This document shows positions 12,245 through 17,062 of a stretch of DNA of 64,000 nucleotides, in pieces (position 1 is the stretch's first letter; each line of letters begins with the position of its first letter). Source of the stretch: a virus (lineage: Duplodnaviria; Caudoviricetes); the IMG/VR virus record IMGVR_UViG_3300021387_001565, positions 32,001 through 96,000 of that record; one strand, given 5' to 3'. The notes under the pieces were generated by a model. The model worked only from the letters and a program-made list of their open reading frames with translations, was not told where the DNA came from and did not search any database. Position numbers and translations under genes: made by a program.

Positions 12245-12708
12245 CACCAAGTTTCATCTAAATTAAATAACACTGAATAATCGCTGTTAAAAAATACCCG
12301 CAACTTCTCGCTAGGAATAAAAATGCAGTTCTCTCCATCCACCAACTGCTTAATGGTAATGGACTTTCTTCCGCTCTCTCGAAACTCTCTACATGTCCTA
12401 AGTGGTAAATAAACGATAAGGTCATGCTCGTAGAACCACAGGACTAATCCCGACCTCACGCCTTTTATTCCTACCTTCTTTACCATGTCATCATACTGTG
12501 AGAACGTAAGGGGGAATCTGTCCCCCTTGTGCGTCTTACAGTCAATGTAAAAGATATTGGGATAATGATATGCTATAAAATCACATATATTGCGGATACC
12601 GTATCTCTGTTTGTCCATATGGTCATACAGACGGTCGATTGAGGTATCGGGGAATTTGAGCCAATCAGATTTCATTTTATCCTCAAACTTCTTATCGAAA
12701 TCGTTCAT
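12244..12708 (-). CDS. recU: RecU-like Holliday junction resolvase
   Basis: FEDK...CDFIAY...YIDCKTHKGDRFP...QY PD-(D/E)XK pattern of RecU. Confidence 0.7.
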   Translation of the reverse strand: MNDFDKKFEDKMKSDWLKFPDTSIDRLYDHMDKQRYGIRNICDFIAYHYPNIFYIDCKTHKGDRFPLTFSQYDDMVKKVGIKGVRSGLVLWFYEHDLIVYLPLRTCREFRESGRKSITIKQLVDGENCIFIPSEKLRVFFNSDYSVLFNLDETW

Positions 12709-14116: not shown

Positions 14117-17062
14117 TCACCTCTCTTTCAATGTAACAAGTACATAATCGCCATCTTCTTTACAGGAAACAACATCAGCAAGAACAGTGTTCCCCTTATC
14201 GTTGTTTACGTAAATACTGCAATTAGCAGTTAACGCTTCTCCTGTAATAAGACCATTGGGTGTCTTGACCTTAGACTTTTTGTACAAGCGTAGAACATCA
14301 TCAGTCACAGGCTTATCAACCTGCTTATTTGTTGCTTTAAACAACATTCTTACGAGGTGATTATGCGAAGGTATATTCTGAAGGTTTATAGGGTCGCTAG
14401 AACTCGTTCGTCCCGTATTGTGATTTATCATGCTGTTCGCAATAAAACTATGCGATGCAGGAACATGTAAATCATATACTGTATTAGTCGATGCTTGAAT
14501 GTCTTCCACGTAGGAATAAAACACATTACCGTAGGTAAGATAAGTAGATTTCTTATACTTATCGAGGTGTAGTGCTTTTGCAGATTGTACCACACCTACT
14601 TCTTGCAAAAATTTTCCATACATCTCACCCGACACACCAAGACGCTGAACGGCTAAGGGTTCAACTGCATTTCCCATATGGTCATGAGTGTTGTCATACA
14701 TGCCTCGATGAACACTGCCCAATATACCCATATTGGTAAGGCTGTCACGTAAAAAATTCATGCTCACCTTGTTAGCACAACTAATAACCAACCGCTGTCG
14801 CTGTTTATCGAACGTGCTGTCAAGTGTCATACCTCGAATATAAGCACACATAACTGACTTGGGAGACCGCATTATTATATCGGGAACTACCTTATTTCGC
14901 GCTCCCCTCTGTAAATATCTCTCTAAATCAACTATACACAAACTACCAAAGGCAATACTGCCCCCTTTGGTGCGTGAGTCTTTGCAGTAATGAGCAGTAA
15001 GACCAAATAACTTCTTAACCAAATAAGACACGCGAGCAAAAACTTCGGGGTCACTATTATTTATTTGCACAGAGAATACGTCACTGTGATGTTTATATGT
15101 GCCATCTGCGTGATACATTCCAAGCAACTCTGCAAAATCTTCATCACAATACTTAGGAAAAGTGCAATTACTGCGGTTAAATTTTATATTTCTTACTTCA
15201 CAATCAAGTGGTTGATAGTTACTCGGAAAAATGTTGTAACCATACGGGATAGCAACTGTATCACCCTTTTTAAGTGTGCCGAGTTGTTTAAATGACCACG
15301 TCTCAGATAACCGCCTACGCTGTCGTGCGCTTTTATTACGATATATGTCATCAAGAGTAATATCAGTGCATATAACAGGATGATGCGGTGTGCCCTCAAC
15401 TGAATAGCCACCTCGTAAATTAACCTTGACGGTAGGCACATTAGCAAACATAATCCTGTGAGATGCGTGCTCCAATTGCAGGTCTTTATTAACTACGGTG
15501 ACATCATGAGGATAAAACTCCCCACTCTTCTCAGAGCCGTCAAAAATGCCCGACATCTGAACATAACCATCATCAGTTAACAATAAACTATCCCCTGTAA
15601 TACAAGCCGCACCTAGTTGGTTGAAGTGCGTATGCACCCTGTCGTCCGATGGATTAGTGACCTTCGGAATAACATCAACATAGGTGGTGATTAACTTTAA
15701 AAATCCTCGGTTATCAAGTATCTTATGCAGTAGTGGTTCATGGTACTTCTTGTCTAACGCTTCAAGAATATCCTCTCCTGTGCCTTTTGACGGTTTGTAG
15801 TCGGGTTTATTCTTATCCCTTGGCTTATCAAGAATACCTGCCTCAAAACCAAGAACATCATACAGCAAGATAGACAACTGTTGTGGACTTGTGAGGCAGT
15901 CTATCGTAAGAGGGTCAACCAACTTCTCCGACTTGGATTTATAATACTTAATCAAGTTCGGGTTAGAGTGTTTCACAGGGTCGGGAACTTCGGGATATTC
16001 ACTCTGCTTAAGTTTCTTACCTGTACGTTTTATCTCTCCATAGGTAAATGGATGATATTGGGCTTCGGGTGTTTTACGCCATGCGGATACCTTATCCTTA
16101 TAAGTATCTAATAGACTTTGTAGTTCAATCTGCAAAGCATCGTACTGCTTATGATATAGCGCACTTAACTTATTAGCGAACTCATAATCTACTCCGACAC
16201 CTGTAGACTCCATCTCTGCGATAACCTCTACGCAAGGCATCTCTACTTCAAGACAGCACTTAAGCACATCAGCATTCTCGGGTTTAGATAACTGTTCAAA
16301 CTGCCACCTAAACAACTTCATGGTCATGAATGAGTCGGTAGCGGCATACAGGGCAAATACCCTCGGCGGAACAACCGCATACTGAACATTTGCAAACAAA
16401 TGGTCGATAGAGTAGTGTTCAACTGACGGGTCAATCTTGTCAATGTATTGGGGCTTCAACTTTGCGTTAGGCTCGTTTTCATTAAACATACGAGTACCAA
16501 TCATGGTATCCCAATAGATTGAAATTCGACAGCCACAAGTATGTTTTAGCACTTGATAATCGAATGAGCCGTGATGCAGGATGTTTTTTACCTTTGCAGG
16601 TTTCAACCTGTCTAACTGCTCTTTTATCTGTTTCTCTGTAACCTGCCAATCCAAACGTTCGCCTGTATTGTAATTAACATGATTGACAGGTATATAGGCT
16701 TGTTTTTGTCCTTCGGTGTATAAACACAAACCCATTAACTTACAGGTTAATGGGTCTAGGCTATTATTCGTCTCTGTATCGACAGCAAGATATCCGTTCT
16801 CGATGGCAGAGTCGATATACGCCACAAATTTATCGTAAGAGTCAATTACTATCGTGTTCTCGCGATAACGTCCAAGAATACGATATACCTCTGCGGTGAT
16901 AAGTTGCAATCTCTCTTCTATTGAGAGAGTCTTATCGTCTACGTTTGTCGCAGAGGTCTTGACTACAGGGGATTTTGGTTTAGCCACCGTGGACTTTACT
17001 TTTGTTACTTTTGCGGTTTCGGGTGCGACTACAAGCGCATCCCCCCACAGGGATGTAAGCAT
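14117..17062 (-). CDS. polA: Family A DNA polymerase, N-terminal subunit (3'-5' exonuclease, thumb, start of palm) with intein
   Basis: AVDTET, HHGSFD and YAATD exonuclease motifs; EMESTGV; SPQQL; HTHFNQ...TGRTSSSDPINLQNIP. Confidence 0.93.
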   Translation of the reverse strand: MLTSLWGDALVVAPETAKVTKVKSTVAKPKSPVVKTSATNVDDKTLSIEERLQLITAEVYRILGRYRENTIVIDSYDKFVAYIDSAIENGYLAVDTETNNSLDPLTCKLMGLCLYTEGQKQAYIPVNHVNYNTGERLDWQVTEKQIKEQLDRLKPAKVKNILHHGSFDYQVLKHTCGCRISIYWDTMIGTRMFNENEPNAKLKPQYIDKIDPSVEHYSIDHLFANVQYAVVPPRVFALYAATDSFMTMKLFRWQFEQLSKPENADVLKCCLEVEMPCVEVIAEMESTGVGVDYEFANKLSALYHKQYDALQIELQSLLDTYKDKVSAWRKTPEAQYHPFTYGEIKRTGKKLKQSEYPEVPDPVKHSNPNLIKYYKSKSEKLVDPLTIDCLTSPQQLSILLYDVLGFEAGILDKPRDKNKPDYKPSKGTGEDILEALDKKYHEPLLHKILDNRGFLKLITTYVDVIPKVTNPSDDRVHTHFNQLGAACITGDSLLLTDDGYVQMSGIFDGSEKSGEFYPHDVTVVNKDLQLEHASHRIMFANVPTVKVNLRGGYSVEGTPHHPVICTDITLDDIYRNKSARQRRRLSETWSFKQLGTLKKGDTVAIPYGYNIFPSNYQPLDCEVRNIKFNRSNCTFPKYCDEDFAELLGMYHADGTYKHHSDVFSVQINNSDPEVFARVSYLVKKLFGLTAHYCKDSRTKGGSIAFGSLCIVDLERYLQRGARNKVVPDIIMRSPKSVMCAYIRGMTLDSTFDKQRQRLVISCANKVSMNFLRDSLTNMGILGSVHRGMYDNTHDHMGNAVEPLAVQRLGVSGEMYGKFLQEVGVVQSAKALHLDKYKKSTYLTYGNVFYSYVEDIQASTNTVYDLHVPASHSFIANSMINHNTGRTSSSDPINLQNIPSHNHLVRMLFKATNKQVDKPVTDDVLRLYKKSKVKTPNGLITGEALTANCSIYVNNDKGNTVLADVVSCKEDGDYVLVTLKER
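14417..15604 (-). mobile_element. Intein (396 aa) with LAGLIDADG homing endonuclease in polA
   Basis: CITGDS start, TPHHP block B, LLGMYHADG and YIRGMTLDS motifs, VYDLHVP...NHN end followed by Thr of TGR. Confidence 0.95.

Follow-up and report, generated by a model that had tools for sequence, protein, structure and literature searches.

Layout of the polymerase locus

The window, by which we mean the whole stretch of DNA that was analysed (64,000 nucleotides, positions 32001–96000 of the 147,319-base IMG/VR virus record IMGVR_UViG_3300021387_001565), carries on its minus strand a replication module in which three large open reading frames (ORFs) are, by Pfam, the pieces of one family A DNA polymerase (PolA) with a 3'-5' exonuclease domain. 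The gene is interrupted at four places: by an intein, by a split into two genes (the N-half and the C-half), by a 7-nucleotide (nt) coding gap in motif A, and by a group I intron in motif B. The gap is the main subject of this work, and we believe that it is best read as the site of a programmed translational hop, located where a homing-endonuclease cassette has its 3' edge. The features of the locus are as follows, in the order in which they would be transcribed.

14117..17062, minus strand: N-half gene of PolA, a precursor of 981 amino acids (aa) comprising the 3'-5' exonuclease, the N-terminal polymerase part, the intein and a Hint-like tail (ORF; Pfam DNA_pol_A_exo1, DNA_pol_A, Intein_splicing, LAGLIDADG_3)
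14417..15604, minus strand: intein with LAGLIDADG homing-endonuclease domain, 396 aa (Pfam and residue hallmarks)
14120..14332, minus strand: C-terminal extension of the N-half, a 71-aa all-beta Hint-fold tail resembling an intein N-fragment, without Cys/Ser1 or block B (alignment of 22 tails, profile, AF2 model)
14116..14125, minus strand: extended Shine-Dalgarno site GAGAGGTGAT of the C-half gene, overlapping the N-half stop TGA and the first ATG (match to the anti-Shine-Dalgarno sequence)
14055..14111, minus strand: head of the C-half, 19 codons that begin with the likely start ATG (14111..14109), end with the take-off codon TCG (14057..14055) and include the motif A Asp codon at 14063..14061 (ORF reading)
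14061..14103, minus strand: predicted hairpin that closes immediately 5' of the take-off codon, with 5' arm GTCAG (14103..14099, codons 3–5) and 3' arm CTGAC (14065..14061) (covariation)
14048..14054, minus strand: 7-nt coding gap TAGTTCG, consisting of the stop TAG, one base, and a putative landing codon TCG identical to the take-off TCG; decoding would resume at GGA 14047..14045 (comparison with relatives)
13847..14047, minus strand: C-half exon 1 past the gap, 67 codons that start with the remainder of motif A and run on through motif B's first half (ORF list, Pfam, colinearity)
13539..13846, minus strand: group I intron without an ORF, 308 nt, inside motif B (RF00028 match, P1/P10 pairings, homologues)
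12705..13538, minus strand: C-half exon 2, 277 codons and a stop, starting with motif B's second half and continuing through motif C (ORF list, Pfam, colinearity)

The original prediction, made from the sequence of the window, had placed an intein, a TGATG split, a 7-nt gap and an intron here, and all four are found on the minus strand where it put them. It had also argued that a working PolA would require protein splicing, RNA splicing, a 7-nt skip and the assembly of two products, and comparison with relatives bears this out: the predicted processed products, an N-half of 585 aa once the intein is excised and a C-half of 363 aa, are colinear with the 823-aa uninterrupted PolA of a relative (382 of 799 aligned positions identical), with the tail-plus-head insert at the split as the sole difference. 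As it foresaw, gene callers break the locus into three fragments, of 981, 78 and 276 aa, and overlook the 19-codon ORF with the motif A Asp. No other PolA, and no PolB or DnaE, is present in the 147-kb record, which is estimated to be 88% complete and in which this PolA locus is the only one.

The relatives used for comparison are 80 related polymerase loci from IMG/VR (given L numbers where they must be told apart), obtained by an alignment-based scan of viral contigs; a single-protein scan of viral contigs recovered none. The gene is uninterrupted in about 32 of the 80. Among the relatives the intein, the split, the gap and the intron are present or absent independently of one another, and endonuclease genes lie at the same sites elsewhere, so the earlier description of the interruptions as stacked selfish insertions stands.

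The gap in motif A

The C-half ORF runs for 19 codons to G-S-D-Y-S and then meets TAG, while the remainder of the enzyme lies in the +1 frame. The gap is preceded by GAC TAT TCG (14063..14055) and followed by GGA CAA GAA CCG, and skipping its 7 nt gives D-Y-S-G-Q-E-P-R, with the same motif length as in uninterrupted relatives.

Including that of the window, 19 distinct gap alleles are known, of 5, 6, 7, 8, 10, 11, 14 or 15 nt. A stop codon opens the gap in 18 of them, and the codon that ends the gap matches the take-off codon at its first two bases in 15 and exactly in 8, against roughly one of the 19 expected by chance (from simple arithmetic, with alleles that are partly non-independent). 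Three alleles sit at shifted positions: after Ala in L033, after Pro in L032, and after Gln-Gln in L083. The Ala-to-Ala landing in L033 restores the sequence of the unsplit gene in L017, which is 98.5% identical, and the Pro-to-Pro landing is kept in L032; the L083 allele begins with a stop, and its landing codon matches at one base only.

In two relatives, L078 and L082, TAG is read as sense, and their gaps open with TGA or TAA. Many in-frame TAG codons occur at conserved Gln positions of PolA in both (L078, 2606–5310; L082, 2315–5316), and the total length of long ORFs roughly triples when TAG is taken as sense, which indicates TAG-to-Gln recoding. Reassignment of TAG or TGA was considered for the gap in the window and rejected: TAA follows TGA in frame, and the frame changes past TAG.

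The gap occurs exclusively in split genes, and in none of 34 unsplit ones. On a tree built from the last exon, at least 14 changes of the gap state are required, as would fit a mobile element, and in other relatives group I introns occupy the very phosphodiester of the gap, one of them with a GIY-YIG gene and one above the Rfam gathering score. Downstream of the gap, the ratio of nonsynonymous to synonymous substitution rates (dN/dS) between pairs of gap-bearing genes is 0.015–0.106, that is, these sequences are under strong purifying selection.

Candidate signals close to the gap

The N-half stop TGA (14119..14117) overlaps the first ATG (14117..14115) in the TGATG junction, and a second in-frame ATG (14111..14109) sits 4 nt past the Shine-Dalgarno site. 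The second is more likely to be the start of the C-half, because its spacing from the site matches that in relatives. Perfect complementarity to the anti-Shine-Dalgarno sequence over 8–11 nt is found in 10 of the 19 gap alleles, compared with 2 of 222 other ORFs of the same loci. The distance from the start is nearly fixed as well: take-off falls at codon 17–20 in the 16 Ser-site alleles measured, and at codon 19 in L060 and L061 as judged by eye. The 19-codon head of L060 (4232–4288; L061 is the same) has no in-frame ATG, GTG or TTG, and apparently starts at an ATT 4 nt past its Shine-Dalgarno site GAAGGTGAT.

Across the alleles, codons 2–5 pair with the bases immediately 5' of the take-off codon. 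The energy of the arm duplex is −7.3 to −14.7 kcal/mol in the gap alleles and −2.3 to −3.4 kcal/mol in three of four gapless split genes. The arms covary, with a mean of −10.8 kcal/mol for own partners as against −8.3 kcal/mol for swapped ones, and none of 20,000 permutations reached the observed mean. Covariation was assessed by this partner-permutation of duplex energies; in a MAFFT alignment of the C-half heads, several rows had the 5' arm in the wrong place, and the alignment was therefore not used. With regard to a possible nascent-peptide signal, the heads are basic and alike across alleles, but these residues contribute to the hairpin arm and to a strand of the polymerase as well.

The split, its tail and the endonuclease cassette

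Only about 8 residues separate the conserved R-x-x-F-K-A segment from motif A in uninterrupted relatives. In split relatives the N-half gains a tail of 60–80 aa and a new gene begins shortly upstream of motif A; in the window, the N-half ends 73 residues past the segment. A profile built from 22 of these tails hits the gp41-1 split intein in its N-terminal part (E-value 1.2e-5). The AF2 model of the tail is all-beta, with a predicted local distance difference test (pLDDT) score of 88.7, and its top 7 structural matches in VIA-align are all inteins, at middling Z-scores of 6.2–7.1. Foldseek gave no significant match to the model (best E-value 0.09), and Pfam none to the tail or to the HNH-like ORF of L045.

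The arrangement recalls the fractured gene with a split intein (PMC2677866): in both, a phage gene for DNA synthesis is in two pieces, a Hint N-fragment ends the first, and in relatives an endonuclease gene stands between them. The window differs from that system in its splicing residues, as Cys/Ser1, block B and the C-fragment ending in His-Asn with its nucleophile are all absent from the tail and from the 12-aa head. Without these residues the halves probably stay separate, and trans-splicing is not expected. We regard the split as a degenerate fractured gene, the halves of which would associate without ligation.

Between the halves, relatives carry genes for LAGLIDADG (L064, L014), GIY-YIG (L012) or HNH-like (L045, L060, L083, L084) endonucleases. 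Three loci of 94–96% DNA identity capture the cassette in different states: it is absent in L063, present without the endonuclease gene in L065, and present with it in L064, and the tract in which the three diverge stops at the gap. The window keeps tail, head and gap, and the endonuclease gene at its split is gone.

Two further observations concern the cassette in relatives. In L084 (2643–3443), an additional ORF of 267 aa lies between the halves and adjoins the HNH-like gene; a motif resembling a phosphoribosyl pyrophosphate (PRPP)-binding site, V-D-D-V-x-T-T-G-A-T, was noted in it by eye. The second concerns L017 (3985–4230) and L033 (3975–4252), whose genomes are 98.5% identical: in L017 a Hint-like insert is in frame within a continuous 951-aa open frame, a re-fused form, and L033 differs in the version of its insert, is split, and has a 5-nt gap that contains no stop codon.

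The intein and the group I intron

The intein occupies residues 487–882 of the 981-aa ORF and has the expected hallmarks: Cys1, the block B T-x-x-H (here T-P-H-H), a terminal His-Asn, and Thr at +1. Within it, Pfam scores Intein_splicing (PF14890) at 40.5 bits against a cut-off of 35.8 and LAGLIDADG_3 (PF14528) at 30.4 bits against 22.5. Joining the exteins without it gives the sequence that is uninterrupted in L006 and L007, which have no intein there. Homologous inteins, with 31–39% identity over the full length, occur in Clostridium phage CS19 and in Staphylococcus phage Romulus, whose annotation calls the feature a putative intein, and the window, Romulus/Remus and CS19 use the same extein junction, directly before the T-G/S-R segment. 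The intein of the window is an ordinary new member of this known PolA intein allele, with splicing predicted; what sets it apart from Romulus/Remus and CS19 is a different phage lineage and the combination with three further interruptions.

The intron is preceded by U and ends in G (omega-G) at 13539. A guide GCCC (13804..13801) can pair with the 3' end of exon 1 as P1 (GGGU with GCCC), with U-G at the splice site, and the adjoining CATTAT (13810..13805) with the first six bases of exon 2 as P10 (AUAAUG with CAUUAU). The joined exons read L-L-G-I-M-Y-G-R-G, and the intron-less L007 reads straight on through motif B. In a 1-kb search the Rfam model RF00028 aligned over its whole length at 32.5 bits (E-value 2.8e-6), below the gathering score of 50. 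At the gathering threshold Rfam detected no intron in the window, and a search of L006 and L056 at a wider E-value gave no match, so the call rests on the 1-kb search, the logic of P1 and P10, and the homologues. Of these, L006 and L056 have introns at the same site, and 27 of 74 predicted pairs are compensated (three homologues, a small sample), while L008, 85% identical, carries a GIY-YIG/NUMOD3 gene within the same intron.

Phage PolA genes such as those of SPO1 and Bastille have group I introns, and several introns per gene are common in that group (PMC11878797). The intron in the window is an ordinary member of this known kind, with self-splicing predicted, and differs from the SPO1 and Bastille introns in having no ORF and in scoring below the Rfam gathering score, although its close relative in L008 does have an endonuclease gene. 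Further group I introns were noted elsewhere in the gene. One lies in the D-P-x-N-L / Q-N-I-P motif of L006 (400–728), L007 (89–378, 88 bits) and L009 (1758–3049); these are the closest relatives of the window, which lacks that intron, just as they lack its intein. L085 (3650–4264) has two group I introns within 650 nt of one PolA gene (66.4 and 54.9 bits, both above the gathering score), one in the D-P-x-N-L / Q-N-I-P motif and the other exactly at the motif A site of the short gap.

A proposed hop over the gap and the alternatives to it

We consider the window to hold a replicative family A DNA polymerase that selfish elements invaded at four conserved sites and that is still expressed by four routes of repair, a reading to which we give a probability of about 0.7. 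In this reading the LAGLIDADG intein would splice itself from the N-half protein, and the group I intron in motif B from the messenger RNA (mRNA). A homing-endonuclease cassette would have split the gene and since lost its endonuclease gene here, leaving the Hint-fold tail on the N-half and the short new head on the C-half, which probably hold the two halves together non-covalently.

For the gap, we propose that the ribosome meets TAG in its A site, at the codon after codon 19 of the C-half, with peptidyl-tRNA-Ser on TCG. The tRNA would release this codon, the mRNA would slide by 7 nt, and the tRNA would re-pair with the next TCG, so that decoding resumes at GGA and motif A is restored as D-Y-S-G-Q-E-P-R. 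The hairpin probably aids the hop by re-forming behind the ribosome. Its 3' arm would be inside the ribosome at take-off, so it could re-form only as the mRNA advances, which would favour forward movement; the same has been proposed for the 5' stem-loop of gene 60 of phage T4 (PMC5009743; 10.1101/2024.12.09.627546). The strong Shine-Dalgarno site may offset loss at the hop, or offset the hairpin at the start, or load ribosomes that queue behind the paused one; that collisions between ribosomes alter recoding is established (PMC6815119).

Most likely the gap came about as a means by which the cassette protects the endonuclease target in motif A, much as the T4 bypass insert protects against MobA (10.1101/2022.08.31.505936). 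Such shielding of a homing site is plausible; the gap lies on the phosphodiester used by group I introns and at the right-hand edge of a mobile cassette. With no endonuclease gene left at the split in the window, any protective role would be historical. The original prediction had gone further and suggested that the interruptions might shield targets of CRISPR or act as layered control of the onset of replication; we found no evidence for either.

Conventional recoding is the alternative that survives best, and we regard it as unlikely. The ribosome would shift by +1 at TCG-TAG-T and add two residues (D-Y-S-S-S-G-Q-E-P-R), with −1 or +2 shifts or readthrough in relatives. A stop after the shift codon is indeed the classic stimulator of +1 frameshifting, 7 nt is 6 + 1, and the alleles that stay in frame (6 and 15 nt) could simply be read through. 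However, three mechanisms would be needed for lengths that a single rule of hopping covers, from 5 to 15 nt, and in the products 2–5 variable residues would separate motif A's catalytic Asp from its conserved Glu, a distance that is invariant in uninterrupted relatives. Nor does recoding explain why the gap so often ends in the same synonymous codon (the 8 exact matches), or why the Ala and Pro alleles end in Ala and Pro codons.

Much less probable still is a decaying pseudogene, with replication left to a host polymerase or to one encoded in the missing 12% of the genome. A stop and a frameshift within a catalytic motif, in a record that is only 88% complete, might suggest as much; yet the low dN/dS past the gap, the retention of the catalytic motifs and of long open frames in all 19 diverged alleles, and the conservation or covariation of the stop, the matched codon, the Shine-Dalgarno site and the hairpin all argue for a gene in use, as does the lack of any other polymerase in the 147 kb. 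We also think it very improbable that the enzyme is made in three pieces, with termination at TAG releasing a 19-aa peptide that contains the Asp and the remainder being initiated separately: the 19-codon ORF does have its own strong ribosome-binding site, but no start codon with such a site follows the gap, in-frame alleles have only a stop between the parts, and it is structurally implausible for the catalytic strand–helix junction within motif A to be cut. An error of sequencing or assembly, among which short indels are common, is hardly credible as the source of the 7 nt: three assemblies from different pipelines have an identical sequence, and 18 other alleles, from many samples, have homologous gaps that differ in length.

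Several points weigh against the hop and the larger picture of which it is part. The hop is deduced from comparison, and four of the 19 alleles (L022, L060, L064 and L083) would land with a mismatch at codon position 1 or 2, while that of L033 has no stop codon at all. The matched codons may partly reflect an origin of the insert by duplication and not decoding. The hairpin of the window has just 5 contiguous pairs, and its split has no endonuclease gene. Synthetic stop-hops in Escherichia coli are inefficient, and high efficiency here would depend on the putative signals. Finally, a second polymerase could lie in the 12% of the genome missing from the record, and the two additional assemblies with the same sequence (below) may stem from one sample.

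Relation to known bypass systems

The closest counterpart of the PolA hop is the element of T4 that comprises gene 39, mobA and gene 60 with its 50-nt translational bypass (10.1101/2022.08.31.505936; PMC5009743). In both, a homing-endonuclease cassette splits an essential replication gene and leaves a tail upstream, a head downstream and an untranslated gap at its 3' edge; stepwise loss of the endonuclease gene, exchange of endonuclease families and a re-fused form (L017) are likewise shared. Gene 60 also has a stem-loop 5' of take-off and a landing codon that matches the take-off codon, as the window has with TCG and TCG. The C-terminal tail of T4 gp39 (8yo3_C residues 486–514, the gp39–gp60 chain, before the mobA split) matches the profile of the PolA tails weakly, at an E-value of 1e-3 and a domain i-E-value of 0.09, and a common origin of the two cassettes is possible.

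The differences are also clear. The host gene is PolA, at motif A, and not a topoisomerase, and the gap has 5–15 nt instead of 50, too short for a take-off stem-loop or an internal Shine-Dalgarno sequence, neither of which is present. The codons are Ser (also Ala and Pro) where T4 has Gly GGA, and take-off is at codon 17–20 as against 46. The extended Shine-Dalgarno site belongs to the C-half gene's own start, and the PolA hop is proposed from the comparison of sequences.

Synthetic stop-hops in E. coli and the byp inserts of Magnusiomyces mitochondria (PMC5009743) resemble the proposed PolA hop in that a peptidyl-tRNA jumps a short distance past a stop, or past a codon that cannot be read, and lands on a matching one, whatever the frame. 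The former, however, are artificial, and the latter are mitochondrial and largely context-free. According to a 2016 review no natural in-frame stop-hop was known, and shorter natural counterparts of gene 60 had long been presumed (PMC5009743); in our search of the literature, which had incomplete coverage and took in later reports, no paper on hopping in a polymerase gene came up. The PolA hop would be a short natural form of bypass, new relative to T4 gene 60.

Going beyond this, we tentatively suggest that the tail–endonuclease–head–gap cassette belongs to a widespread modular class of mobile elements akin to T4 MobA/gene 60, which would invade the most conserved motifs of phage replication genes. 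On this doubtful view, the elements would bring along a portable bypass signal of minimal size, made up of a strong Shine-Dalgarno site, a hairpin near the start that zips up again behind the ribosome, a stop, and a matched codon 5–15 nt downstream, and bacterial ribosomes would hop efficiently because of it. The short head and the Hint-derived tail would bring the split enzyme back together as a "molecular zipper" that does not splice.

Origin of the sequence and host

The sequence of the locus is found with 100% identity over 6000 nt and 3608 nt in two further assemblies, Logan SRR873601 and JGI 3300002641. A DNA search against cultured phages gave a 78-nt match and nothing more. Among cultured phages, the C-terminal part of the polymerase is closest to PolA of Streptococcus phage Dp-1 and of Clostridium phage phiCTP1, with about 42–44% identity. 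Related contigs that were binned into metagenome-assembled genomes mostly bear the names of Clostridia or Lachnospiraceae, which hints at a Bacillota host for this large uncultured phage. A single tRNA-Gln gene (anticodon TTG) lies at 22657–22731 of the window on the minus strand, and the window has no suppressor tRNA.

Significance

For decades, efficient programmed bypassing has rested on a single example from bacterial viruses, T4 gene 60 and its homologues in topoisomerase genes. The locus described here and its roughly 20 allelic relatives provide, in another gene, a natural set of gaps that are very short and follow simple rules open to mutational testing, namely a stop, a matched codon, a hairpin, a Shine-Dalgarno site, and a start that lies at a fixed distance. 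There is also a consequence for annotation, as fragmented calls lose the catalytic Asp and such phages seem to have no working polymerase. In one gene, homing elements of three kinds (an intein, an intron and a free-standing endonuclease cassette) are seen to pile up at conserved motifs, each of them, on our reading, neutralised at a different level of expression.

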